DNA from: a virus | Reading direction: 5' to 3' (one strand) | Virus genome (UHGV): UHGV-0032033 | DNA: 53,461 bases | In this document: one piece after another, positions 7,887 to 34,622 of the stretch | Layout of the letters: each line of letters opens with the position of its first letter | Position numbering within the stretch: position 1 is the first letter of the stretch | Position numbers and translations under genes: made by a program | The notes under the pieces: generated by a model | The model's input: the letters and a program-made list of their open reading frames with translations, nothing else | The model's database searches: none | What the model was told of the DNA's origin: nothing

Positions 7887-9107
7887 ATGGCGTTATCAGA
7901 TACTAAATTAAGAAGCATCCACGGTAAAAATTATGATGGCCCGGTCGAGATCCCGGATGGCGGAGGTCTGTCAGTAAGGGTAAGTCCGAAAGGCGTCATT
8001 GCGTTTCAGTATCGATACAGGTATGGCGGGAAGCCTAAAAGGATGAAGCTAGGCAACTATGGCGTAATGACGCTCAAGGAAGCCAGGCTAGCGGTAATTG
8101 AGTGCAAGGCGATATTGGCAGACGGCAAAGATCCCGGACTTGCTAAGAAACAGCGCATTGACGAGGCGATGGCGAGAGCAACCGTTAGCGATATCGTGAA
8201 CAACTATCTTAATAAACAGACGACCAGGGAAATTAAGGGATACAAAGAGATCAAGCAAAACTTACAAAAGCACATAATCAAGAGGTATGGCGATTTTATT
8301 GTGGATGATATTAACGCGAGGGCGTGGGAGGCAATATTCTCAGAGATAACGAAAGCGGGCCATCCGGTGCAGGCTGGCGCGATGTTACGCCGCATGAAAT
8401 CTATTGTCGCTATGGCGCAAAGGAAAGGGATAGTAAAAGACAACGAGATCCGCTTGTTGCGAGTGGAAGACGTTGGCAAACCGCCGCGCAAGATCGACAG
8501 ATATTTATCGGGCGAGGAAGTAGGGGAATTCTGGCGTTTTACGGCTGGCGATTTTATGTCTAAGGCCAATATGACATTCTTCAGACTACTGCTATTAACA
8601 GGATGCAGGACGGTAGAATTGAGGCTAGCAAAGCGTGAACATTTTGATCTCAATCACAGGGTATGGAATATCCCTGCGGAACTATCAAAAAACAAAAAGC
8701 GGTTTACGCGCGGCCTGTCAACGTTAAGCGTAGAGCTATTAAGCATGATGTTTGATTGCCACGGCTTCAACATAGTTTTCCCTGCGGTATTGTCGCTGGA
8801 TGGTAAACCAATGGATAAAGCTGTGTGCACAAGACTAGCGACAAGGCTTAGTAATGAAATTGGATTTAAGGCGGGTTTTACTGCGCATGATTTGCGCCGG
8901 ACGTGCCGCACGCATTTAGCGGCATTAGGCGTGACCGCCCAGGTAGCCGAAAAAATGTTGGGCCATACCCTGGGCGGAGTATTAGGAGTTTATGACAGAT
9001 ATGATTATGTAGAAGAACAGAAAGACGCTGCGGAATTATGGGCTAATTACGTTTTATCAGTATCAGAAAGCAAGCCTACTGACTTAAAGAACTGCATTAC
9101 ATCTTGA
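7887..9107 (+). CDS. int: tyrosine integrase (P4-like, with N-terminal arm-binding domain)
   Basis: RBS aaggggg; N-terminal LSDTKLRS...GLSVRVSPKGVIAFQYRYRYGGKPKRMKLG motif, C-terminal catalytic region with HDLRRT and LGH...VYDRY. Confidence 0.85.
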   Translation: MALSDTKLRSIHGKNYDGPVEIPDGGGLSVRVSPKGVIAFQYRYRYGGKPKRMKLGNYGVMTLKEARLAVIECKAILADGKDPGLAKKQRIDEAMARATVSDIVNNYLNKQTTREIKGYKEIKQNLQKHIIKRYGDFIVDDINARAWEAIFSEITKAGHPVQAGAMLRRMKSIVAMAQRKGIVKDNEIRLLRVEDVGKPPRKIDRYLSGEEVGEFWRFTAGDFMSKANMTFFRLLLLTGCRTVELRLAKREHFDLNHRVWNIPAELSKNKKRFTRGLSTLSVELLSMMFDCHGFNIVFPAVLSLDGKPMDKAVCTRLATRLSNEIGFKAGFTAHDLRRTCRTHLAALGVTAQVAEKMLGHTLGGVLGVYDRYDYVEEQKDAAELWANYVLSVSESKPTDLKNCITS

Positions 9108-13025: not shown

Positions 13026-14144
13026 TTACAAAATGGAATATTCAGGGTAATAAACAAAGCGCCCGATCTCCCCATAATCAGGACTGTAAATTATTACCGC
13101 AGCCAGACGCCGCGACCGCCAGCCGCCATTCGTTGAATAAGCGTCTTTGCCCGCTAACGTGCCGTGATGTTCTACGATCCCTAACGATGTTTCTACAACA
13201 GACTGGTGATGAAGATGGCCCGTATGAGCGTAAACCGCCGCCGACTTGCCGAAATCCTCCCGCCAGTCAGAGATGCAGGCAGCTAACAAATTTTCGGGTT
13301 TTTTGATAGTGTGACCGTGATGATAGGCAAGGAATGTTTTGCCGTACTGTGTGTGGTGGACGATAGCAGGGGACACGTCAACCGTCACGCGCGGTTCATC
13401 TTCGTAAAAAGCAGCCAGCGCCGCACGTAGCCAAATCATCCCTGATTGATCATGATTTCCGCTAAGCACCTGGATCTCGACATCCTTATGATTTAGCAAC
13501 ATCTTCCCGACAGCACGCCGGACCGACCGGATCGCCACGTAAACAAGTTTTGCGTAGCGTGAATCACAATCCAAAACGTGATTACTTGATGGCGTCACTG
13601 GTAACAGTCCGTCAGTGTGGAGCACATCCCCGCCTAACAGCAAAACAGCTTTTTCAGACATCGGTGCAGCGCCTACCGCGTAGTCGAAGAAATCATTTAG
13701 CACGCGCTCAGCGATCCCAGTGTCGTAGCTCTCGCCGCATTCTGCCTTGTGAGCAAGCGCCCCGATATGCAGATCAAATACCGGATAAAGGGCCAGGCTT
13801 TTTTGGAAATCAATTTCCGGCACTGGCACGGCCTCCGCGCGGGGTATTTCTTCCGTGAATGCATCACAAGCCGATTGCATTAGCCTTTCCATTTCATCGC
13901 GATCACGGGCTGTTTTAATCCAGCGCATAATCACATTGCCATCCTTATCGACGAGCAATGACTCACCATTGACGCCAAAACCCGGCGCGCGACGCGTGGA
14001 TATTAAACCGCGTTTCGCCAACCGTGCGCCCAGGCGTTCGACGTTGCGTTTTGCCATGCCATATTTTTCTGCTATTTGCTTGTAAGTTTTCCCCTTGTTG
14101 TACTCAGCGATCAGTTCCTCATCGCTGATCTTTCTTTGTGACAT
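13026..14144 (-). CDS. HTH domain fused to calcineurin-like metallophosphoesterase
   Basis: N-terminal HTH (TYKQIAEKYGMAKRNVERLGARLAKRGLI); C-terminal phosphoesterase motifs DLHIG, GGDVLHTD, LSGNHD, HTGHLHH; occupies helicase-loader position between initiator and DnaB. Confidence 0.6.
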   Translation of the reverse strand: MSQRKISDEELIAEYNKGKTYKQIAEKYGMAKRNVERLGARLAKRGLISTRRAPGFGVNGESLLVDKDGNVIMRWIKTARDRDEMERLMQSACDAFTEEIPRAEAVPVPEIDFQKSLALYPVFDLHIGALAHKAECGESYDTGIAERVLNDFFDYAVGAAPMSEKAVLLLGGDVLHTDGLLPVTPSSNHVLDCDSRYAKLVYVAIRSVRRAVGKMLLNHKDVEIQVLSGNHDQSGMIWLRAALAAFYEDEPRVTVDVSPAIVHHTQYGKTFLAYHHGHTIKKPENLLAACISDWREDFGKSAAVYAHTGHLHHQSVVETSLGIVEHHGTLAGKDAYSTNGGWRSRRLAAVIIYSPDYGEIGRFVYYPEYSIL

Positions 14145-16138: not shown

Positions 16139-16786
16139 ATGAAAACAAAATGGTATGACTTAGCAAAGCAGCTCATGCGGGCGCAGGGCATGAGTCAGGA
16201 TTCACTCGCAGATCTCATGGGGATAACTAAAGGCGGCCTGTCACACTGGCTGAATGGTCGCCGCGAGCCTAATCTTGAAGATATTGCGCGGATTATGCGG
16301 GCGCTTGGTCGTCGGCAGTTTACTGTTACACATGACGGCATGGTCATTGATGATTCTGTTTCTAATACACTTCAGGCCGCGCCGCCGCGTGATTTAGGTA
16401 GTTACCCGGTTATTGACTGGAAGGACACAGTAAACAATATGGATGACACAAGGCGATCAGCATTACCACACGTTACGACTAGCGTTATTTGTTCAGATGA
16501 TAGTTACTGGCTGGTTGCCAAAGGTGAATCAATGAACGCGCCGCAGGGGTTGAGCATCCCTGCTGGGACGATGATACTTGTAGACCCGCACGCGCCAGCT
16601 ATTGACGGCAAACTGGTTATAGCCCAGCTTGAGGAAGGGCAGATACCGACGTTTAAACAGTTGATTATTGATGGAGGTCAAAGGCTTTTACGTTCGCTCA
16701 ATCCGCTGTATCCGCCAATCCCTATGAATCCAGAATCAAAAATTATAGGCGTGGTGGTTGATGCGAAGATCGTAAACCTGCCATAA
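16139..16786 (+). CDS. cI: cI-like repressor (XRE HTH + S24/LexA-type autopeptidase)
   Basis: N-terminal HTH (SQDSLADLMGITKGGLSHWLNGRREP), C-terminal S24 motifs (VAKGESMNAP, IPTFKQLIIDGG); divergent from early operon. Confidence 0.85.
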   Translation: MKTKWYDLAKQLMRAQGMSQDSLADLMGITKGGLSHWLNGRREPNLEDIARIMRALGRRQFTVTHDGMVIDDSVSNTLQAAPPRDLGSYPVIDWKDTVNNMDDTRRSALPHVTTSVICSDDSYWLVAKGESMNAPQGLSIPAGTMILVDPHAPAIDGKLVIAQLEEGQIPTFKQLIIDGGQRLLRSLNPLYPPIPMNPESKIIGVVVDAKIVNLP

Positions 16787-16818: not shown

Positions 16819-16909
16819 CCGGAAAACACCAAAACGTAAACAGAAAACGTTATTTATTGTTTAAATATCAATAGCATATAAAATATTTTAAAAAGGTATA
16901 CAAAATGGA

Positions 16910-24585: not shown

Positions 24586-24744
24586 AGTTTACAAAATGGC
24601 GTCATTGCGTGATGCGGATCACATAATGGCGCTTTTTGCCTTGTTTGGGGGTATCCATTTTGTATACTTCAAGCAAACAAAATGCTCTTTAAAAATCCGG
24701 CAGCGCTGAAATGCGTAGAAATCACCTGAAAAGGAGAGAGCATT

Positions 24745-25945: not shown

Positions 25946-26124
25946 AAAACGAAGTTAAAGATCTGCAAATAGATATTCAGCGCGACGAACGTGATTTAGA
26001 GACGGTCCGACAAATCCAGGCTTTCCACATGAGCGAATTACTTGCGCTGAAAGAGTTTGAAAGAAAGCTGGTGCAATCCATTTCTGATCGTAAATGCCTT
26101 ATTGCTCGTTACGGGGGGAAATAA
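25942..26124 (+). CDS. hypothetical protein (60 aa)
   Basis: Track ORF, coupled. Confidence 0.4.
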   Translation: MKNEVKDLQIDIQRDERDLETVRQIQAFHMSELLALKEFERKLVQSISDRKCLIARYGGK

Positions 26125-26846
26125 TGAATTTAGAATCCATTCTGAAATTCCACTTCCCAAAATCACCGCGATTATCAGACGAAAGCCGGGGAACATCACC
26201 TGATGCACTTAATACTACTGATGCGCTTACCGCCGCTGGTATGGCGCAATCGCGCGTAGAGCTTGGTTATAGCGCTTTTCTAGGGAAGATGGAACTATCA
26301 CAAGCCGAAAAACACAGGGCCGTAGTTTTGCTTACAGAGCGTTTAAGAGCTATGGCAAAAGATTACGAATACGTCATGGAACTGGAGGAGAGCCAGCGCA
26401 ATGATTTTATTATTCTTGTTGCCGTTTTCGCGTTTCGGGATTATTGCCAAAGCGCCGCGACGGAAAAAACTTGTATGGAGTGCGGCGGATATAAATTTAC
26501 GTTTGACGAATACGGAGAAAAACACCTTTGCAAAAAATGCAAGGGGCACGGGAAAGTTCGCAATCATTGTAAACAATGCAAGGGGCGCGGCGAGATACCG
26601 GATAAAACAGCCAGCAATGCGGCAGAAATGCCAGTCTTCAAAACGTGCCAGCACTGTGGCGGGCGCGGGTACTCGCGTTTCCCGGTAGATCTCGTCCGGC
26701 AGGCTGTTAACCAGCTTGTTTTCCCGGTAAGCCGATCAACATGGTGGAAGAAATACAGGGTTTTCTATGAGGACGCCATAGCGGAGCTATTCAAAGAAGA
26801 AGCCCGCGCGGAAAGCGAAATCAAGCGAGTGACACGGGGTGAATAA
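26124..26846 (+). CDS. Cys-rich zinc-finger protein, candidate late antiterminator (Q-like)
   Basis: Position after ninG-rusA as for lambda Q; repeated CxxCxGxG motifs (CMECGGYKF, CKKCKGHGK, CKQCKGRGE, CQHCGGRGY); assignment tentative. Confidence 0.45.
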   Translation: MNLESILKFHFPKSPRLSDESRGTSPDALNTTDALTAAGMAQSRVELGYSAFLGKMELSQAEKHRAVVLLTERLRAMAKDYEYVMELEESQRNDFIILVAVFAFRDYCQSAATEKTCMECGGYKFTFDEYGEKHLCKKCKGHGKVRNHCKQCKGRGEIPDKTASNAAEMPVFKTCQHCGGRGYSRFPVDLVRQAVNQLVFPVSRSTWWKKYRVFYEDAIAELFKEEARAESEIKRVTRGE

Positions 26847-27046
26847 TGGATAAGTTAGAAATAAACGATCAGTTTGCCGTTATCTTATTTGAAGATAAAA
26901 CAGGCGGCGCATGGTGTAAGAAAGTCACTGGTGCGGAAGCGCGTTTAATATTGGGTATGGCGAGCGCGTTAAACGAGGGCGAATTGCCCGCCATCCCTGT
27001 TAAGCCTGTCAAAATTTACAAGCGGGGTGACGATGATGAAGCCTAA
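26846..27046 (+). CDS. hypothetical protein (66 aa)
   Basis: Track ORF, start abuts upstream stop. Confidence 0.45.
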   Translation: MDKLEINDQFAVILFEDKTGGAWCKKVTGAEARLILGMASALNEGELPAIPVKPVKIYKRGDDDEA

Positions 27047-27308
27047 ATTAAAAGAACATATTTACCGCCAGTTGATTAACGAGCTTGCTGATACGGCCCG
27101 ATATTACGCCGGAACACAACAGCTACGCGGGCGGATATCTTCGGTTGTTAACCGCTATATTGATGCCGGATGTCATCGCAAAGGTGAAATTACGATGGAC
27201 GAGGCCATCAAACGCCGTTCGGCTGAATGGTCAGTGAGTAATACCGGATTAACCGGATACATCGAAGGCTATAACGACTGTTTACAGGATCATAATGATG
27301 GCAAGTAA
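27027..27308 (+). CDS. hypothetical protein (start uncertain, probably ATG a few codons in)
   Basis: Track ORF begins at a GTG; in-frame ATGs 2-3 codons downstream with ggggtga SD. Confidence 0.45.
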   Translation: MTMMKPKLKEHIYRQLINELADTARYYAGTQQLRGRISSVVNRYIDAGCHRKGEITMDEAIKRRSAEWSVSNTGLTGYIEGYNDCLQDHNDGK

Positions 27309-27606
27309 AGACCTACATTTGAACCTGAAAGGGGAATATTTTCACGCCATCCGGGCGGGAAAGAAGGTGGAGGAATACCGGCTTTACAATGACTATTGGC
27401 GGAAACGCCTGGAAGGTCGGGAATATGAACGCCTGATAATCAAGCTTGGTTATCCAGCCAGCCACGAAACACACCGGATCATAAACCTGCCTTATTTCGG
27501 GTACGAAGTAAAAACTATCACGCATCCATTATTCGGCCCTGATCCTGTTAAGGTATTCGCAATTAAATGTGATGTGAATTGGATGTTAAGGTGGGGTGAG
27601 CAATGA
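27295..27606 (+). CDS. ASCH-domain-like protein
   Basis: N-terminal LNLKGEYFHAIRAGKKVEEYR resembles ASCH/PUA-like beta-barrel signature. Confidence 0.45.
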   Translation: MMASKDLHLNLKGEYFHAIRAGKKVEEYRLYNDYWRKRLEGREYERLIIKLGYPASHETHRIINLPYFGYEVKTITHPLFGPDPVKVFAIKCDVNWMLRWGEQ

Positions 27607-27818
27607 AAAAAGCTGGCCTATCAATTAGCCGTGTATTGTGCGGTGACGAAAACGAGATCCGCATAGAAATTAAATTTAGCACAGGTAAAGAGATAATCCT
27701 TTACACGACACCTGAAAACCTGGCGCTGGTGCTTACTGGTAAATCTGAAACGCCGTGCGACGTCCGCTTACGCAATATTGAGATCAGGGAAATAGGAGAG
27801 GCGAAAAATGAAAAGTAA
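27603..27818 (+). CDS. hypothetical protein (71 aa)
   Basis: Track ORF, coupled. Confidence 0.45.
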   Translation: MKKAGLSISRVLCGDENEIRIEIKFSTGKEIILYTTPENLALVLTGKSETPCDVRLRNIEIREIGEAKNEK

Positions 27819-28020
27819 CCGTAAACGCCTGGTAAGAGCATATGATAAAGCGTTAAAGGCTTTTGATGATCTGCGACACAATAAGCGCCAGCGCCGCAAA
27901 TGGGCGCGAATGCTTGTTGGTGAATGGCATAACGAAGATTTCTTTCTGGAAGCGCGGCACATGACGCAAGAAGACGCGGACCAATTAGCTTACGATAATG
28001 TTTATTATATGATGTGGTGA
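27808..28020 (+). CDS. hypothetical protein (70 aa)
   Basis: Track ORF, coupled. Confidence 0.45.
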   Translation: MKSNRKRLVRAYDKALKAFDDLRHNKRQRRKWARMLVGEWHNEDFFLEARHMTQEDADQLAYDNVYYMMW

Positions 28021-28024
28021 CAAT

Positions 28025-28390
28025 ATGCAAATAATCCTTGATTACCTTTGCCACGCTGCAAATACAATTTTTGGCATGTATCAGCAACAATTCCTCAAAG
28101 AATGGGACGACATGCTGAATGATATCCTCGATAAAGGATTAATAATGGAGGTTGACGAGCTTACAATCAAATTTAATTATGAGGGTGAAATTTATCTAAT
28201 TTGGGTCGGGAATAGATGGTATTCATACGGTCATATTTATTCAATTGGCGATAAATACATTAAACGAAGCCAGGAATTCAGACCGCGCTTCCGAACAATG
28301 CGCCGCCTGCATGATCTGCATATGAAGTTATTCGAAGATCAGGAAGCACGGGAATTATTCAAAATTTACGGGGATATATCATGGAGCTAA
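28025..28390 (+). CDS. hypothetical protein (121 aa)
   Basis: Track ORF. Confidence 0.5.
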   Translation: MQIILDYLCHAANTIFGMYQQQFLKEWDDMLNDILDKGLIMEVDELTIKFNYEGEIYLIWVGNRWYSYGHIYSIGDKYIKRSQEFRPRFRTMRRLHDLHMKLFEDQEARELFKIYGDISWS

Positions 28391-28611
28391 AAATATGGCA
28401 GGCTATCGACGTGGTTGATAACGAATTATCTATGTTTGCCACTGACGGAAAGCGCGTGGTGATCGCCACATGGACGCGCAACCATGATGATATTACTTTT
28501 CGTCGCAAGGCGGCGGAGTGGCTTTTCTCTGATGGCGGCTACACGATGAACATCGCACAGCTTGCCAGAATGAAGGATGAAAAGCTGGTAGACAGCTACA
28601 CAACTGCATAA
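28381..28611 (+). CDS. hypothetical protein (76 aa)
   Basis: Track ORF, coupled. Confidence 0.45.
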   Translation: MELKIWQAIDVVDNELSMFATDGKRVVIATWTRNHDDITFRRKAAEWLFSDGGYTMNIAQLARMKDEKLVDSYTTA

Positions 28612-28621
28612 CGGGGTAAAT

Positions 28622-28855
28622 ATGCGTATTTATGAACACAAGCGGGATAAAACCCGCTTTTTTGTTCGTGCTGGCGTGGCGTACCAGTATCACGAATGCG
28701 GATACATTGAAGCGCTTGCTTACGATCTGGATTTCGAACAAGAAAAGGAATGGTTCGATTTCAAGATTTACCGGAAGCGCAAGCCAACGCGCGACGAGCG
28801 ACACGCTATCCGGGACTTTTTAATCAGCATAGACCGCTGGGAGACAGAGGAATGA
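28622..28855 (+). CDS. hypothetical protein (77 aa)
   Basis: Track ORF. Confidence 0.45.
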   Translation: MRIYEHKRDKTRFFVRAGVAYQYHECGYIEALAYDLDFEQEKEWFDFKIYRKRKPTRDERHAIRDFLISIDRWETEE

Positions 28856-29079
28856 AAGTTAAATTCTTGCACGATCACGGCTACCCATCATTAAAACGCG
28901 TGGTAGGGGAAATGGTAGACGTTGTTCATTCTGATGATGTGACCTGCGTCGTTATGGGTAAAGACCTTATCGCTCACGGTGCTGATAAAAATTATATCAA
29001 TCCGGCGTGGTCGTATACGTTCAGCCTGGGCGACTTCGTGGGCGATAAGGGGCGCGGGCTGCAAGTAGTCGAGGGTTAA
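28852..29079 (+). CDS. hypothetical protein (75 aa)
   Basis: ATGA-coupled; RBS ggagacagagg. Confidence 0.45.
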   Translation: MKVKFLHDHGYPSLKRVVGEMVDVVHSDDVTCVVMGKDLIAHGADKNYINPAWSYTFSLGDFVGDKGRGLQVVEG

Positions 29080-29083
29080 TATT

Positions 29084-29299
29084 ATGGACGTTTACGAGGA
29101 TGTTTACCTGGCACCTTCATCTTATAGCTTTTATTTTCTGATAAATGGAAAGGCTTATAGATGCGATTCTGACGGGGTGAGAGAAGAAAAGCTGTTTTGC
29201 ACTAAAGGATACCTGGATGATTTGGTTTTTGCCGGGATATTTCGCAAACGTCCGGCTAACCTGGAAGAAGAAATGCTGATCGACGAGGTGTTAAAATGA
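29084..29299 (+). CDS. hypothetical protein (71 aa)
   Basis: Track ORF. Confidence 0.45.
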   Translation: MDVYEDVYLAPSSYSFYFLINGKAYRCDSDGVREEKLFCTKGYLDDLVFAGIFRKRPANLEEEMLIDEVLK

Positions 29300-29541
29300 A
29301 AGTGAATTATTTCAGGGCAAAAGACAAGGCAACAGGAAAGCGGGTGGCTATCCTGGTTAATGAAGCAAATTATATGTTTGTTCTCCAGCCGTGGTGCATA
29401 GCTGACTATAACGATGATTATCGCCGTCACGCTGCGCGGCGGGCGGTCGGGATGAAAGGCTGGCAGCCTCGCGACATGCTTAATTATTGCGACTGGAATC
29501 TGATAGCGAAATACACGGTCGATTATAAGGGGATTTTCTGA
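29296..29541 (+). CDS. hypothetical protein (81 aa)
   Basis: Track ORF, coupled. Confidence 0.45.
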   Translation: MKVNYFRAKDKATGKRVAILVNEANYMFVLQPWCIADYNDDYRRHAARRAVGMKGWQPRDMLNYCDWNLIAKYTVDYKGIF

Positions 29542-29747
29542 TGTATGTTCGATGCACTGAATCAAAATCATCATGCTTTGAGGTTGGCGGGATATATACC
29601 GTATCTCACCTGACTGGCGATGAAAATAACATACAATACATTAAAGACGATCACGGCGACGCGTGGCGCTATTGGGATTGTTACGCACGGGGACATGTTA
29701 CCAGTCAATTCGGCACGGAAGCGATCGCGCGATTCATTAAATGGTGA
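29541..29747 (+). CDS. small protein, paralog family A member 1
   Basis: VRCTESKSSCFEVGGIYTV ... KDDHGDAWRYW; shared pattern C.(Y/E)S....F..G.IY / DD.G..W(R/Y)(F/Y). Confidence 0.55.
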   Translation: MYVRCTESKSSCFEVGGIYTVSHLTGDENNIQYIKDDHGDAWRYWDCYARGHVTSQFGTEAIARFIKW

Positions 29748-29758
29748 GAGAGGCGTTT

Positions 29759-29971
29759 ATGCAAGTTAAATGCTCATATTCAAGCAATGACAGTGTTTTC
29801 ACGATTGGGCGAGTTTATGACGTTCACATCGTTTATGGCAATGAAAATCACACAATGAATAATTGCCTTGCCTTGATTGATAATCATGACGAAATATGGG
29901 TATTCAGGCCGAGTTATGAAGGCGGTGAAATATCCGGCGTAGGTTTTGCTGCCAGCTTCGAACGTTATTAA
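29759..29971 (+). CDS. small protein, paralog family A member 2
   Basis: RBS gagagagg; VKCSYSSNDSVFTIGRVYDV ... DNHDEIWVF. Confidence 0.55.
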   Translation: MQVKCSYSSNDSVFTIGRVYDVHIVYGNENHTMNNCLALIDNHDEIWVFRPSYEGGEISGVGFAASFERY

Positions 29972-29981
29972 AGGGGCAATC

Positions 29982-30239
29982 ATGAAACATTTATATTTTG
30001 AGGTATTGCAGACGCGCGACCGCAATATATTTGAAGAAGGGAAGATCTATTGCGGCGTTCAACTCCACGGCGCACCTGGCGGTAATGGTGCAATGGCGAT
30101 AACTGGCGATGATGATAAAGTTTATTTCGCTTATGTTAGCCATATCAATAACGCCGCTGGTTTGTATATTTATCGCATAGTCCATGATTTTCGTGAGATC
30201 GCGGAGTTTTGCGCCCGCGAAGGCAGTAAACCGGAATAA
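29982..30239 (+). CDS. small protein, probable divergent family A member 3
   Basis: RBS aaagggg; FEEGKIYCGV ... ITGDDDKVYFAYV. Confidence 0.45.
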   Translation: MKHLYFEVLQTRDRNIFEEGKIYCGVQLHGAPGGNGAMAITGDDDKVYFAYVSHINNAAGLYIYRIVHDFREIAEFCAREGSKPE

Positions 30240-30249
30240 GTGAGGTGTT

Positions 30250-30486
30250 ATGAATCGGAAACATAGATACCAGTGCACATACTCACGATGCAGCGCGTTT
30301 TTTAAGAATGGCAAGATCTACGAGGTTGGCGCAGCATTGGTTGACGAAAAGGATCAGGAATATATTCACGCCATTACTGACGACCAGGGCCAGTTATGGC
30401 GCTTTTATAAAATGGGGTGTGGCACGGCGCTTGTTTATGCGCGTGCTGGTGGTGCTTTTGCTGCGTTTTCGTGTGTAGGGGTATGA
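30250..30486 (+). CDS. small protein, paralog family A member 4
   Basis: YQCTYSRCSAFFKNGKIYEV ... TDDQGQLWRFY. Confidence 0.55.
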   Translation: MNRKHRYQCTYSRCSAFFKNGKIYEVGAALVDEKDQEYIHAITDDQGQLWRFYKMGCGTALVYARAGGAFAAFSCVGV

Positions 30487-30707
30487 AAATGATTTTAACG
30501 TGTAACGAGTCGGAATTAGGCTGTTTTGAGGAAGGCGCACAGTATACGGCTGAAAAACCGATGGGATTGTCGCCTAAGTTGCCGTTTATCGTCGTGACTG
30601 ACACTTACGGGCATTTATGGTATGCGGAACCGCGCCGGGGGATTGGTCGTTATGTTGTCCGTAGTTCGGACGGGATGATGATGGTTACTCTCACAGAAGA
30701 AACATAA
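30483..30707 (+). CDS. small protein, paralog family A member 5
   Basis: RBS agggg; LTCNESELGCFEEGAQYTA ... TDTYGHLWYA. Confidence 0.55.
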   Translation: MKMILTCNESELGCFEEGAQYTAEKPMGLSPKLPFIVVTDTYGHLWYAEPRRGIGRYVVRSSDGMMMVTLTEET

Positions 30708-30804
30708 TGTGATCTGCATCACGAGGTATACAAAATGGCATTGTTTTGGCAGTGCCATTTTGTTATAAAGAGGCTGAAGAGAGAACGATACGGAGGGTAG
30801 AAAA

Positions 30805-31077
30805 ATGAAACGCTGGATTAACGAAGAAACAGAAGCCCGCTTCAATGCCATTTGGGATCTGATTGAAAAAGAGGACGGCGTTTCTAGTCCCTACCTGAAC
30901 AATCTTGAGTTCCACTATGTAGAAGCGATGAACGCAGAGCATGACCACGAAGGAGGTGCTGATGAATTCGCCAAAAAATACGGCTTCGATGATGCAAACC
31001 ATATGATTAACAACGTGGTGATGCAGGCAGAGGAAGACTACGAATACAAATCACTTGAATTCGCACGCATGGCATAA
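30805..31077 (+). CDS. hypothetical acidic protein (90 aa)
   Basis: Track ORF with RBS ggaggg. Confidence 0.5.
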   Translation: MKRWINEETEARFNAIWDLIEKEDGVSSPYLNNLEFHYVEAMNAEHDHEGGADEFAKKYGFDDANHMINNVVMQAEEDYEYKSLEFARMA

Positions 31078-31087
31078 GGGGGAAACC

Positions 31088-31228
31088 ATGAACGCTAACG
31101 CTAAATATCCGGCCTGGGTTTTCGAACTATACGCCCGCTACTTTGACGCATTAGCACCAGGTGAAGAAGCATTAAGCATTGACGAATACGCGGAGTGCTT
31201 AGGATTTAGAGGAGGAGAAGAAGAATAA
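31088..31228 (+). CDS. hypothetical small protein (46 aa)
   Basis: RBS ggggga; MNANAKYPAWVFELYARYFDALAPGEEALSIDEYAECLGFRGGEEE; below track cut-off. Confidence 0.35.
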   Translation: MNANAKYPAWVFELYARYFDALAPGEEALSIDEYAECLGFRGGEEE

Positions 31229-31267
31229 ACACGGGGCCGGATGGCCCCATCAAACGGAGTAGAAATT

Positions 31268-31522
31268 ATGGTTGTGATCAGACTATGGCGCGGAGTCAGT
31301 AGGCTTGATGGCACATACAGCCGCGTAATTGAGGATGTTAATAATGGTCGGTTTTTTGAACTGGCATACAGTGAGAAAAGAGAGAGTGAATACCTGAACG
31401 AATCTACACCTATGTGGTGCAAAGTGGCGGGCCTTACTTCACTTTTGCGTCGCGGGTTTAGTACAGACTATAACACCTTAATTGACGCCGAACTGGTGGC
31501 TACTCTTTACGAAGCAGAATGA
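31268..31522 (+). CDS. small protein, paralog family B member 1 (84 aa)
   Basis: RBS ggag; IRLWRGVSRLDGTYSRVIEDVNNGRFFELAY...LLRRGF...ELVATLYEAE. Confidence 0.55.
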   Translation: MVVIRLWRGVSRLDGTYSRVIEDVNNGRFFELAYSEKRESEYLNESTPMWCKVAGLTSLLRRGFSTDYNTLIDAELVATLYEAE

Positions 31523-31551
31523 GGAATCAAATAATATTAAATAGGTGTGAT

Positions 31552-31806
31552 ATGGAAATAATAAAACTGTGGCGCGGCAATAGTAAGGCTGATGGTGAGT
31601 TTTGCCGCGTCGTTCAATTCGTCAATTATGGTAGGTTTTACGAGCTACCTTATAACAAAAGGAAGGGTGATTTCTATTTAAGCGAATCAATCCCGGTGCG
31701 CAGAAAAATGAAAGCGCTTAGAGGATTATTGCGAAGTGGTTTTTATTCTTGCCCTAACCCATTAAACAATCCTGAATTGGTGGCTGTTTTTTACGAAGGA
31801 GAATGA
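31552..31806 (+). CDS. small protein, paralog family B member 2 (84 aa)
   Basis: RBS aggtg; IKLWRGNSKADGEFCRVVQFVNYGRFYELPY...LLRSGF...ELVAVFYEGE; same length as member 1. Confidence 0.55.
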   Translation: MEIIKLWRGNSKADGEFCRVVQFVNYGRFYELPYNKRKGDFYLSESIPVRRKMKALRGLLRSGFYSCPNPLNNPELVAVFYEGE

Positions 31807-32132
31807 AAATGACTAAATTTATCAGCGTTAAAGTTTTCCGTGGTACTTTACCGAACGAAGAAGGATTAGGACAATTTGCCAGGCAACCTGGTGCATGTTT
31901 CCGTGTAGCCACTGAAGACGATGCGCATGTTAAATGCTTCCACGTATCGGAACCGCCTTTTAATGCAGACCATCTTGAAGACCCGGATAGAATTAAAAGC
32001 CTAGTTTCTGCCTATCTGATGTTCCAGGGTATCGCTGATATGGAAGTGGAATTGCTTGGCGCTGAACTGGTGGCAGAATACAAAATTACTGAAGCAGAAA
32101 GCGGAGAATCAAAAATTGAGCGCATCAAATAA
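31803..32132 (+). CDS. small protein, divergent family B member 3
   Basis: VKVFRGTLPNEEGLGQFARQ ... GAELVAEYKITEAE. Confidence 0.45.
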   Translation: MKMTKFISVKVFRGTLPNEEGLGQFARQPGACFRVATEDDAHVKCFHVSEPPFNADHLEDPDRIKSLVSAYLMFQGIADMEVELLGAELVAEYKITEAESGESKIERIK

Positions 32133-32367
32133 ACCTTACAAAATCCGTTGTAAAGGTGAGTACCCTGGCTTTACGACTGGTTGCGAATACCTGGGCCACA
32201 TTGGGTACGGCCCTTTCGGTGAGTTAGGGATGAACACGATGGACGACGACGGCGACAGCAGGACGCTTGATCTTGATTCTGATGATTTCGAATACATCCC
32301 GCCAGTCACTTACCGTGACGTCGATGATTTCCTGGCTGAACAAGAAGACGATGAAGAGGATGATTAA
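32056..32367 (+). CDS. acidic small protein with family-A-like N-terminal motif (start uncertain, possibly TTG ~32116)
   Basis: KIRCKGEYPGFTTGCEY ... MDDDGDSRT; C-terminal Asp/Glu-rich tail. Confidence 0.4.
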   Translation: MALNWWQNTKLLKQKAENQKLSASNKPYKIRCKGEYPGFTTGCEYLGHIGYGPFGELGMNTMDDDGDSRTLDLDSDDFEYIPPVTYRDVDDFLAEQEDDEEDD

Positions 32368-32369
32368 CT

Positions 32370-32510
32370 ATGGATGACGAATACGTTAACAATTTTATTG
32401 TTATGTTTCTTAGTGAAAACTGGCGCATGTTTGAACATTATTGTTTTGAGCGCGGGGAAAATGCTGAAGAAATATATCAATATTTAGGCGGGGAGAAAGA
32501 GGATGATTGA
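32370..32510 (+). CDS. hypothetical small protein (46 aa)
   Basis: MDDEYVNNFIVMFLSENWRMFEHYCFERGENAEEIYQYLGGEKEDD; stop overlaps next ATG. Confidence 0.35.
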   Translation: MDDEYVNNFIVMFLSENWRMFEHYCFERGENAEEIYQYLGGEKEDD

Positions 32511-32703
32511 ATGCCTTATCATTGCTGCGTTTCTCCTTTATATCGCTGGCGCTATCCTGATGTCTTGTTTTATCAGAAGTAACGATCTCAATCGTGGTGG
32601 CCTTGAGGTTCCTTTCTGGCCTGTAGCGGTGTTTATCGCTTTCGTCGATGCTACGCGCACGCAGATCAAAAGAGCTATTAAGGAGCGTAAAAATGGGAAA
32701 TAG
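32503..32703 (+). CDS. small membrane protein (66 aa)
   Basis: Two hydrophobic segments (IIAAFLLYIAGAILMSCFI; FWPVAVFIAFV). Confidence 0.45.
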   Translation: MIECLIIAAFLLYIAGAILMSCFIRSNDLNRGGLEVPFWPVAVFIAFVDATRTQIKRAIKERKNGK

Positions 32704-32917
32704 CGACCATCAATATGACGGCGTTTATCAGTCATTGGTGTCACGCGCTTATTATCGCCTTGAAGGTGAACACGTAATGATGCGATTACGCCAGTTTGAT
32801 CCGTGGCATGAAACGATTCTACCTGTGACAGCGAAAGAAGTTATCACGATGTTTAATCACGGGCACTGGCGCAAGGTTGGTGATATTAAATTCAGGATGT
32901 TTAAAGAGGGTAATTAA
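32693..32917 (+). CDS. hypothetical protein (74 aa)
   Basis: Internal Met of track ORF 32648..32917. Confidence 0.45.
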   Translation: MGNSDHQYDGVYQSLVSRAYYRLEGEHVMMRLRQFDPWHETILPVTAKEVITMFNHGHWRKVGDIKFRMFKEGN

Positions 32918-33085
32918 ATGATCGAAGATGGTATCTATGTGCATAACTTATTTGATATTGCTTACTTGCTGAAAGAGGAAAAGGTTTTTGTTATGTCGAG
33001 TGAGCATCCTTTCTGGACTGGCGTAAACATGGATCGTGAACAGATGCAAATATTGCTTGATAATGGCCTGATAAAGAAGAAATAG
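32918..33085 (+). CDS. hypothetical small protein (55 aa)
   Basis: ATG abuts previous stop; below track cut-off. Confidence 0.35.
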   Translation: MIEDGIYVHNLFDIAYLLKEEKVFVMSSEHPFWTGVNMDREQMQILLDNGLIKKK

Positions 33086-33152
33086 AAGCCATAATCGCGC
33101 ATAAAAAACAAATAGATTAAAATACTTCCTAACAATGCGAAATTGTAATTAC

Positions 33153-33179
33153 CCGGCCCAGCGCCGGGTTTTTGCTTTG
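33153..33179 (+). terminator. hairpin terminator immediately upstream of lysis cassette (tR'-like)
   Basis: cccggc-ccagc-gccggg followed by TTTTTGCTTTG, ~15 nt before holin RBS. Confidence 0.6.
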
Positions 33180-33193
33180 TTGGAGGTAAATCT

Positions 33194-33394
33194 ATGCTCG
33201 ACAAAATACGGGAGGCATGTGCGTATGCAGTAGGGGCCGTAACGGCCTTTTTTGGTGCGATAACCATTAATGATGTTGCTGTCTTTGTTGGTATCTTATC
33301 AACCGCAGGCACATTTGCCGTTAACTATTACTTCAAATCACAGGAGAACAAGCGAGCGCAAGAGGAACACGACGCGCGAATGGGGAATAAGTAA
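33194..33394 (+). CDS. pinholin (phage 21 S-like holin)
   Basis: 66 aa, two TM segments, C-terminal NYYFKSQENKRAQEEH resembles S21 NLYFKIREDRRKAARGE. Confidence 0.75.
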   Translation: MLDKIREACAYAVGAVTAFFGAITINDVAVFVGILSTAGTFAVNYYFKSQENKRAQEEHDARMGNK

Positions 33395-33886
33395 ATGATT
33401 AGCCAATCGCTGAAGAACAAGATTATTGCTGCGGCGGCTGGTGGGGCGATCGCTATTGCGGCTGTGATGGTTAAACCATTAGAAGGCGTGGAGTACGATC
33501 CTTATCGTGATGTTATCGGTGTATGGACTGTGTGTTATGGTCACACCGGAAAGGACATTATGCTGGGTAAGACTTACACGCAATCAGAATGCGATGCTTT
33601 GTTAAACAAAGATCTCCACAAAACCGCAAAAGCGATTGACCCATATATTAAAGTCGAAATATCAGATTTTACCCGCGCGGCGCTTTATTCATTCGCCTAT
33701 AACGTAGGCGCTACCAACTTCAAAACATCAACCTTATTGAAGCTACTCAATGACGGCAAGAAATCGGAGGCATGTGCACAGCTTAAACGCTGGATATATG
33801 CTGGCGGCAAGCCGTGGCAAGGGTTAATAAACCGCCGTGATGTTGAATATGCCGTTTGCGAATGGGGTGAAACATGGAAAAGGTGA
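33395..33886 (+). CDS. SAR endolysin (lysozyme, phage 21 R-like)
   Basis: N-terminal Gly/Ala-rich SAR segment [17 protein letters not shown]; catalytic region [41 protein letters not shown] close to R21. Confidence 0.9.
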
Positions 33887-34344
33887 AGACGTTAATTATC
33901 GCCGTTGTTGTTTGCATTATTGCCGGGCTGACCGCCGTAACATGTTATTACCAGGGTGAAGCAGCGAGATTGCAGGAAGAGGTCACGACCACGCAAGGCG
34001 CACTGAAAACAGCAAGTAACACTATTCAGCAGATGAAGGAGCGAAACGCAGAGCTATCAAAACTTGATAAGAGGTATCACGATGAAATTAAAGCTATCAG
34101 ATCTGACATTGCCGATCTGCGCACTGGCATTGATAGCGGCGCTATCAGGTTGCACGTCAACGCCGAACCAGTGCGATTACTCGACAATACGGGAACCGCC
34201 AGCCGCATTGATGGAGCCACCTGTAGACTCACTCCCGACGCTGAATCGGCTTATCTATCCCTCAGAGAACAACTAAAAGAGAAAGATGCGAAGATCGCCG
34301 GACTTCAGAGCTATATCAAAACGCAGTGCTTACGCAAAAAATAA
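33874..34344 (+). CDS. Rz: i-spanin (Rz)
   Basis: N-terminal TM helix, coiled-coil periplasmic domain; overlaps endolysin 3' end. Confidence 0.8.
34082..34276 (+). CDS. Rz1: o-spanin (Rz1), embedded in Rz in +1 frame
   Basis: RBS aagagg; lipoprotein signal with lipobox LSGC, Pro-rich mature part. Confidence 0.75.
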   Translation: MKLKLSDLTLPICALALIAALSGCTSTPNQCDYSTIREPPAALMEPPVDSLPTLNRLIYPSENN

Positions 34345-34622
34345 CAGCGCGTGGACGTGTCGCCGTTTCCGCCAGCCAGCCATAACCGGGTCAATCCTTC
34401 CCGCGAGCGACGGCGGAATAGTCAAAAACACGTAATACCGGATCATCCATCCCATTAACAGGTCGGCGCTACCTGGGTAGAAGAAAGCGCCATTCTCCAG
34501 TTTTATAAAATTCTGGAAACGGTACTGATGAAGCGCCGTTTTCAGTGTTTTATGGCTGTTTTCACTCCCTGCGGTGTCGAGTTTTGCGGGGGTTATATTT
34601 TTCAGAATAGGAGATTATTCTG

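Follow-up and report, generated by a model that had tools for sequence, protein, structure and literature searches.

In phage lambda, the nin region between genes P and Q is a run of tightly packed small open reading frames (ORFs) with overlapping start and stop codons, largely dispensable and transcribed as a delayed-early, N-antiterminated unit. Downstream of Q, in the interval leading to the holin gene, lambdoid phages carry Shiga toxin (Stx) genes and other morons, and the Stx genes there sit downstream of the late promoter pR' and the terminator tR' and depend on Q for their expression. Virulent coliphages have arrays of small early genes that are generally regarded as host-takeover or anti-defence genes. 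Here, we examine a dense array of small ORFs between the Q-like gene and the lysis genes of the virus genome UHGV-0032033, a stretch of 53,461 nucleotides (nt) that is called the window below. The block occupies positions 26846-33085 (6.2 kb), from base 1 of its first ORF (o01) to the final base of its last one (o26), and its 26 genes, ca 12% of the genome, have no assigned function. We will argue, with moderate confidence, that it is a delayed-early and largely dispensable host-interaction or counter-defence module located upstream of the late promoter, and that it includes tandem β-barrels resembling the phage protein Gp54.

The source of the window is a mEp021-like temperate phage of the mEpimmI group, which was described in 2025 as a group of Nus-dependent, non-lambdoid temperate siphophages common in human faeces (Negrete-Mendez et al., PMC11893012; GenBank MH706966, PP180001-5 and PP925836). 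mEp021-like phages are reported to be as frequent as lambdoid phages among human faecal isolates, and about half of the mEpimmI genes are 'flexible', mainly in a 'regulation cluster' (PMC11893012). The group as a whole is thus already described, and the block is a normal part of it; the paper and its supplements contain no analysis of the Q-to-lysis interval, its paralogues, promoters or operators. In megablast searches, the phage records matching 26846-33085 are Escherichia phages of the mEp021 type only (MagusPhagus, mEp010, mEp044, mEp554, mEp013, mEp021 and mEp515), with 83-86% identity and 19-66% coverage. A related chromosomal stretch is present in 35 of 5426 complete E. coli genomes (81-92% identity, mosaic coverage), the best match to the block being a prophage of strain PAR (97% coverage, 91.6% identity).

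The limits of the block given in the original prediction are exact, and the flanks described there are borne out as well. Upstream lies a gene for a late antiterminator of the lambda Q family (26094-26846, + strand; Pfam PF03589 at 3.3e-29, PDB 7UBM, lambda Q, at 1.6e-36), whose stop codon overlaps the ATG of o01. Downstream, a conserved spacer with a hairpin (33151-33169) and a T-run precedes the lysis cassette (33194-34344, + strand), which consists of an HP1-type holin, a lysozyme as endolysin, and an Rz-like spanin (Pfam PF16080 at 1e-15 and relatives' annotations). These flanks, and a six-gene core (o06-o11) found in its conserved order by the tblastn matrix and the family-order strings, identify the stretch as the Q-to-holin block of mEpimmI phages. 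Position, Q, terminator, holin type, gene families and gene order are the same as in mEp021 and the other mEpimmI phages, where the genes are likewise all annotated as hypothetical. The window differs in that its version is among the longest and has more members of the A/B superfamily discussed below than any other (eight, compared to 0-7 elsewhere).

With the starts refined to the boundaries of PHROG profile matches, the block holds 26 ORFs, all on the + strand, of 46-121 residues (mean 78) and covering 97.5% of the stretch. The dense same-strand chain of small ORFs that had been noted before is thus present, while the number is 26 instead of about 30. Fifteen of the junctions are overlaps of 1-17 nt and nine are gaps of 0-12 nt, in line with the tight coupling originally claimed, the exception being one 97-nt gap at 30708-30804; the ORFs are probably translationally coupled. 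The ratio of nonsynonymous to synonymous change (N/S; Nei-Gojobori-type, pooled over 4-38 distinct homologous sequences per ORF from 50 related sequences) is lowest in the called frame for all 26 ORFs, at 0.05-0.44 compared to 0.64-5.0 in the two shifted frames. PHROG families are matched by 23 of them, and a Shine-Dalgarno core, defined as a match of at least 4 nt to AGGAGGTG at -18 to -5, precedes 16 of the 26 called starts, as against 19% of the other ATGs in the block. The NCBI (PGAP) annotation of the PAR prophage, made independently, lists 24 hypothetical proteins and one 'RNA-binding protein' under the match, with lengths that agree with most of our calls. Because of these N/S ratios, PHROG matches, Shine-Dalgarno enrichment and PGAP calls, we conclude that the 26 ORFs are real protein genes under purifying selection in the called frame. 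Selection hence acts at the protein level, and the copies in relatives are annotated as 'hypothetical proteins' only, with no assigned functions.

To see how the block varies, we compared it with 46 viral contigs fetched via the Q protein and four annotated records. In the 48 relatives with both ends found, the Q-to-holin distance is 2.0-6.8 kb. Measured from Q stop to holin start over the 44 distinct intervals, it extends from 2.0 kb (mEp021) to 6.8 kb, with a median of 5.6 kb and 8-27 ORFs. The 6.35 kb of the window is close to the maximum and ordinary for the lineage, so that the unusual length attributed to the block does not hold up among these mEp021-like genomes. The ORFs of all intervals, called with a rough gene caller, cluster into ca 33 protein families, of which ca 26 recur, and their order is identical everywhere. 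The core o06-o11 is matched in 51 of the 51 sequences compared, and the presence of o04, o12-o20, o23 and o25 varies between relatives. Several genes occur in two allelic types, with identities of, for example, ca 60% and ca 95%. The guanine-cytosine (GC) content of the block, 0.43-0.47, is similar to that of the rest of the genome. Because the set of ca 33 families is closed, their order fixed and the GC genome-like, the block is, judged by comparison of the sequences, a module specific to the lineage, mosaic in the presence of its genes as well as in their alleles, and not a site open to the insertion of foreign genes. The earlier proposal that it holds uncharacterised cargo is therefore right as to the uncharacterised small genes and wrong as to open cargo.

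Of the 26 window ORFs, six only (o07-o11 and o19) have homologues in mEp021, whose interval holds 8 ORFs; its match to o26 has just 51% identity. Since mEp021 is a viable laboratory phage, most of the block would be dispensable on E. coli K-12, and 20 of the 26 genes are missing from at least one viable relative. The core, all on the + strand, begins with o06 (28025-28390, 121 residues), which carries the invariant arginine-rich motif RPRFRTMRRL. It is followed by o07 (28381-28611, 76 residues; phrog_38280 at 1e-53, N/S 0.13) and o08 (28622-28855, 77 residues; phrog_30442 at 5e-55), the most conserved ORF of the block with an N/S of 0.05. For o09 (28852-29079, 75 residues), the start was shifted to an ATGA-coupled ATG: phrog_5009 covers residues 35-106 of the longer ORF, and the PGAP call in PAR is identical to ours. 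The core ends with o10 (29084-29299, 71 residues; no PHROG match, N/S 0.36) and the basic o11 (29296-29541, 81 residues; phrog_38609 at 5e-53).

One option considered is that the block, or at least this core, serves essential or structural functions such as late regulation, packaging, lysis timing or the virion, which we regard as unlikely. Its presence in every sequence compared, its N/S of 0.05-0.36 and the invariant motif of o06 would fit such a role, as would the GenBank record of mEp021, in which the o10 homologue gp41 (82 residues, L002 7716-7964) is labelled 'virion structural protein'. That role, however, would extend to at most six of the 26 genes, the other 20 being those that viable relatives lack. 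The Pfam, NCBIfam and PHROGs searches gave no homology to structural or regulatory families, and no detail supporting gp41 as a virion protein is found in the text or supplements of PMC11893012. A virion component encoded in an early-looking block between Q and the holin would also be odd.

We now turn to the position of the late promoter. In lambda, pR' consists of a -35 TTGACT and a -10 TAAATT, followed after 6 nt by the -10-like pause element AACGAT, and the roles of these elements are established; pR' starts ca 45 nt after Q. In the mEp021-type genomes, the ORF after Q overlaps the Q stop codon or directly adjoins it. It varies between genomes, being o01, o06, o07 or a zinc-ribbon family, and the relatives compared show no conserved non-coding stretch behind Q. 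Conservation is instead high in the 108-nt spacer before the holin, which is mostly near-invariant across 32 distinct versions even though the ORFs ahead of it differ. It reads GATTAAAATA-cTTCCT-AACAATGCGAAATTGTAAT and then continues into the terminator hairpin, and its core (GATTAAAATA, CCTAACAATGCGAAA) is invariant in all 32 versions. Upstream, the spacer has two allelic forms, which show no correspondence to overall Q identity. The putative late promoter core (33118-33136, + strand) is made up of a -10 TAAAAT (33118-33123), 7 nt and a pause-like AACAAT (33131-33136). This arrangement of a sigma-70 -10 and a -10-like pause hexamer at about +1 to +6, the signature of the pR' type, has exactly one match in the window, ca 20 nt ahead of the hairpin. 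The tR'-like intrinsic terminator (33151-33175, + strand), a 7-bp stem with six G-C pairs followed by T5, is conserved, and a terminator before the holin is also annotated in mEp021 and mEp010. A MAFFT alignment of lambda pR' with the spacer was uninformative, and the comparison is one of architecture only. We infer that the block is followed by a promoter of the pR' type, with sigma-dependent pausing, and by a terminator resembling tR'; Q would be loaded there and take the polymerase on into the lysis and late genes. Since there is no conserved spacer after Q and the pR'-like signature is found only before the holin, the block is probably upstream of the late promoter, between Q and the target of Q, at the distal end of the early-right operon.

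The RNA of the putative pR' leader (33125-33195) is predicted to fold with -28.1 kcal/mol (fold z-score -4.4). In this fold, CUUCC/UAACAA pairs with UUGUUGGAGG, a segment containing the Shine-Dalgarno sequence of the holin, and thereby lengthens the terminator helix. An anti-Shine-Dalgarno function of this pairing (CUUCC with the holin GGAGG) was considered and rejected: no covariation is seen among the 32 versions, and the 5' side varies without compensation.

Eight of the block genes belong to two groups of paralogues, families A and B, which had been proposed originally and are confirmed here as paralogue families. Family A, all on the + strand, comprises o12 (29541-29747, 68 residues), o13 (29741-29971, 76 residues, or 70 if it starts at 29759; phrog_31142), o14 (29982-30239, 85 residues), o15 (30250-30486, 78 residues), o16 (30483-30707, 74 residues) and the N-terminal domain of o22 (32116-32367, 83 residues, TTG start; phrog_25234 at 2e-54), in which it is joined to an acidic tail (net charge -17). 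Its pattern is C-x(5-6)-F-x-x-G-x-x-Y...DD-x-G-x-x-W. Against the enlarged alignment of the family, hhalign gives probabilities of 98.7-99.6% (99.4% for o14, 99.6% for o15, 98.7% for o16 and 99.2% for o22), o13 is assigned from the family A alignments, and blastp relates o15 and o16 to o12 at 4e-6 and 3e-6, respectively. Family B consists of o19 (31241-31522, + strand, 93 residues, alternative start 31268; phrog_32200 at 1.5e-51) and o20 (31519-31806, + strand, 95 residues, alternative start 31552; phrog_32200 at 1e-26), which are 48% identical. In profile-profile comparison, a bridging family present in relatives is matched to family B with a probability of 98.9% and to family A with 66-97%. 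Compared directly by hhalign, family B gives 85-93% to family A (E 6e-6 to 3e-7), and the hidden Markov model of family A matches family B at 1e-4. The two families probably form a single superfamily with eight copies in the window (o12-o16, o19, o20 and o22); the relatives have 0-7 copies with a median of 4, as counted from rough gene calls.

Family A is narrow. It comprises 104 clusters in 5.8 billion proteins, none of them with a Pfam domain, and those clusters that have a source name all come from E. coli or uncultured phage. An exhaustive HMMER scan of its profile against 1.84 billion representative proteins returned 23 hits only, about half of them already-known members and several of them long multi-stretch proteins that look spurious. 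In three relatives, a gene of ca 240 residues replaces most of the family A copies (intact in the contigs L007 and L026, fragmented in L015). By eye it resembles phosphoadenosine phosphosulfate (PAPS) reductase, and it is the sole enzyme-sized insert noticed in the interval.

The AlphaFold2 (AF2) model of o12, the modelled member of family A, has the six-stranded small β-barrel fold of Gp54 from phage Bas11 (PDB 9AXB). Gp54 is a direct trigger of the defence protein CapRelSJ46, while its close homologues from SECphi27, Bas5, Bas8 and Bas10 fail to activate CapRelSJ46 (Zhang et al., Nature 2024, PMC11578894). The likeness of the family A model to Gp54 is one of shared fold, not of proven homology: Gp54 belongs to a different PHROG (phrog_7421) and has no significant sequence similarity to family A. 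The setting is also different: Gp54 comes from a single-copy gene of a T1-like virulent phage, but the genes found here form a tandem array, and their phage is temperate. If the model is right, a rare fold gains a second, multi-copy home. Foldseek searches against predicted viral structures show that this fold recurs in many small proteins that are uncharacterised and come mostly from phages of enterobacteria. The fold suggests that the family A proteins would be small protein binders. A more far-reaching version of this idea is that the eight barrels are a diversifying repertoire of binders that neutralise host defence or housekeeping proteins, which would make them candidate CapRel-type triggers, with the distal half of the block under a recurring regulatory module (TGTGA-N6-TCACA and TACAAAATGG, see below). 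We consider this speculative and rather unlikely. The copy number of the barrels varies from 0 to 8 between otherwise syntenic phages.

According to the explanation that we favour, transcription would start at the early-right promoter, and the N-like Gp17/nut system would make the polymerase processive at a nutR2-like site at ca 24.68-24.74 kb. This element (24683-24736) has a boxA-like TGCTCTTTAAAAA (24683-24695) and a boxB-like hairpin CCTGAAAAGG (ca 24725), and it is located 1.4 kb upstream of Q, just past a cytosine methyltransferase gene. The published N-like Gp17 system puts nutR2 at the same place (PMC11893012). The polymerase would then continue through Q into o01-o26, giving a delayed-early message before lysis and morphogenesis, and would pass a conserved internal hairpin at 30727-30766. 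The transcript would end at the pR'-like promoter and tR'-like terminator (33118-33175), where Q would switch on the lysis and late genes. The products of the block would be conditionally useful host-interaction or counter-defence proteins and not essential ones, and most of the genes could be lost, with the six-gene core kept throughout.

A number of observations weigh against this explanation. None of the block ORFs matches a known anti-defence or host-takeover protein. The core o06-o11 may be housekeeping, and in mEp021 the counterpart of o10 carries the label of a virion protein. As to the promoter, the putative -35 is poor (TCGCGC in the window allele), no Q-binding element was identified, and the call is based on the consensus -10, the pause-like hexamer and conservation. 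Owing to the internal hairpin and its extended -10-like motif, the block could consist of two units, or its distal half could be transcribed from a regulated promoter of its own. Concerning the fold, two only of the five AF2 models were confident, the family A profile has no match to 9AXB among PDB sequences, and hhalign of family A against Gp54 is not significant (E 0.63), with the F-x-x-G motif only being aligned. The glycine of this motif corresponds to the site of the Gp54 escape mutation G24D.

The original prediction treated the block as one polycistronic unit. The dense same-strand array supports this, but the only large gap, at 30708-30804, carries a conserved terminator-like hairpin and a promoter-like element, a combination that is new here, and the block may not be a single simple operon. 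The gap begins with a CRP-like palindrome, TGTGATCTGCATCACG (30708-30723, no strand assigned), which is complete, perfectly or with one mismatch, in a minority of 31 gap versions; the rest keep the left half only. It is followed by an 18-bp hairpin (AAAATGGCA..TGCCATTTT, 30727-30766, + strand; fold z-score -3.8) with a U-rich 3' side, and by TGTTATAAA (30761-30769, + strand), an extended -10-like motif that lies partly within the 3' arm and may have promoter activity. The hairpin is terminator-like, or may be an operator. A sigma-54 reading of TGGCAT-N4-TTGG in it was discarded, the -12 GC being absent by eye.

These elements raise the possibility of two transcription units, where the gap would end the proximal one and start a separately regulated o17-o26, perhaps lysogen-expressed or catabolite-controlled. 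The hairpin and TGTTA[TC]A are kept in all 31 distinct versions irrespective of the downstream gene, the hairpin is listed in mEp010 as T8, an ARNold terminator, and the centre of the palindrome would be located ca 61 nt upstream of a start near 30776. Two motifs of the gap are moreover over-represented in the window, mostly in intergenic positions and in one case beside a putative early promoter. TGTGA-N6-TCACA with at most one mismatch occurs 7 times, compared to 1.4 expected (none of 100 shuffles reaches 7), and the 10-mer that makes up the hairpin arms, TACAAAATGG, is present in 20 copies with at most one mismatch, compared to 5.6 expected. On the other hand, only a minority of versions has the full palindrome, no -35 is evident, matches to the extended -10 occur at chance frequency, and an N-modified polymerase would read through the terminator. 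We judge a division into two units to be unlikely, and it is compatible with a delayed-early module rather than exclusive of it.

Elsewhere in the window, the seven TGTGA-N6-TCACA sites are found at 8643, 16098, 19402, 24608, 30708, 50898 and 52493, mostly intergenic and just upstream of + strand genes; a CI-like repressor gene (16139-16786) has one of them 25 nt ahead of it. The sites may be bound by CRP or serve a phage regulator as operators. TACAAAATGG is found at 13027, 16056, 16899, 24590/24655, 30729/30755, 47338/47364, 50943 and other positions, often as inverted pairs and adjoining the palindromes. The copy at 16899 abuts the -35 of a probable early promoter (TTGACT, 17 nt, TATATT) between the repressor and N-like genes. 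The two motifs may together make up a regulatory module that recurs in the window.

The interval between Q and the lysis genes was originally compared with the Stx and moron sites of lambdoid phages. In that case, the late promoter would be next to Q, the block would be horizontally acquired cargo of the late operon, and the terminator at 33153 would gate the lysis genes only. The physical position is indeed the same, the content varies between relatives, and three of them have the PAPS-reductase-like gene at the family A position. The analogy fails on regulation, however, as the sole pR'-like signature, conserved among the relatives, stands after the block, and a varying ORF overlaps or abuts the Q stop, leaving no conserved non-coding sequence for a promoter of that kind. 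In addition, the genes overlap or abut and do not have the promoter/terminator flanks typical of morons, their composition does not deviate from that of the genome, and instead of being sporadic and foreign the content is a lineage-specific, syntenic and, as far as the rough calls go, closed set. This makes a late-operon cargo site distinctly improbable. A last alternative, that many of the ORFs have arisen by chance or only shadow a coding sequence in another frame or on the other strand, draws on their shortness, on opposite-strand ORFs of up to 139 residues and on the three ORFs with no PHROG match, but is for practical purposes refuted by the N/S of the called frame, the strong PHROG matches, the enriched Shine-Dalgarno motifs, and the PGAP and Pharokka-style annotations that independently concur.

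The best functional analogy for a delayed-early module of this kind is the lambda nin region, with which it would have in common the dense, largely dispensable small ORFs in a delayed-early, N-antiterminated operon. The block is nevertheless not a nin region. The latter lies between P and Q, and the block downstream of Q and upstream of the putative pR'; homology to curated families, nin genes included, is detectable in none of the 26 ORFs, and the NinG and RusA homologues of the window phage are located before Q, so that dense packing is the only common feature. Long same-strand runs of small hypothetical genes are also seen in the early arrays of virulent coliphages, for instance in Bas11 genes 56-87 (ca 40-145 residues). 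The lifestyle and the regulation are different there, and no family is demonstrably common at the sequence level. What had been a vague 'cargo' region can now be described as a closed syntenic set, probably upstream of the late promoter, with eight genes tied by modelling and profile comparison to an immune-trigger fold. Current understanding is unchanged by this unless a function is found for the block.

The searches for function gave little. Pfam and NCBIfam had nothing above threshold for any of the block ORFs, every strong PHROG match is labelled 'unknown function', and Rfam had no match in 26000-34500. The ASCH-like protein claimed in the block is o03 (27295-27606, + strand, 103 residues; phrog_625 at 8e-36). 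PGAP gives its homologues the names 'ASCH domain-containing' and 'RNA-binding protein', but the score against Pfam ASCH (PF04266) is 15.9 bits, below the cut-off of 21.2 bits, with only the N-terminal 25 residues matched, and the comparison with PDB 2Z0T gives an E of 0.74. An ASCH domain in o03 is thus weakly supported and can be taken as a lead only. The acidic proteins that had been noted are present, four of them being strongly acidic (o17, o18, o22 and o23), while of the several small membrane proteins a clear membrane segment is seen in o24 only.

The remaining ORFs are all on the + strand. Ahead of the core, o01 (26846-27046, 66 residues; phrog_35000 at 5e-40, N/S 0.20) is found in 47 of the 51 sequences compared. 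It is followed by o02 (27033-27308, 91 residues; N/S 0.17), which matches phrog_29262 at 5e-40 and seven other PHROGs, its N-terminal module being common to larger phage proteins. After o03 come the variable o04 (27603-27818, 71 residues; phrog_1222 at 4e-28), present in 20 of the 51 sequences, and the basic o05 (27808-28020, 70 residues, isoelectric point 9.6; phrog_8758 at 3e-26). Following the 97-nt gap, o17 (30805-31077, 90 residues, net charge -13) matches phrog_7287 at 2e-41, and o18 (31088-31228, 46 residues) matches phrog_22232 at 2e-32 from M12 of the longer ORF. Next to family B, o21 (31803-32132, 109 residues; phrog_23107 at 3e-60) has a C-terminal ELVA motif as in that family, but with an hhalign probability of 7% to family B homology is not established.

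At the end of the block, the acidic o23 (32370-32510, 46 residues; phrog_15754 at 8e-24) is followed by the membrane protein o24 (32503-32703, 66 residues; top 19-residue hydropathy 2.56, phrog_10061 at 1e-24). The last two genes, o25 (32693-32917, 74 residues; phrog_15318) and o26 (32918-33085, 55 residues; phrog_15318 at 4e-19), constitute a separate tandem family, C, with two or three copies in relatives. In three IMG/VR contigs (L032, L033 and L034), the last ORFs before the holin are in-frame fusions, with the N-terminal half of o22 in front and the C-terminal half of o25 behind it (…GYGPFGELGM|MRLSQFEKW…), by which o23 and o24 are deleted, a natural recombination or deletion variant.

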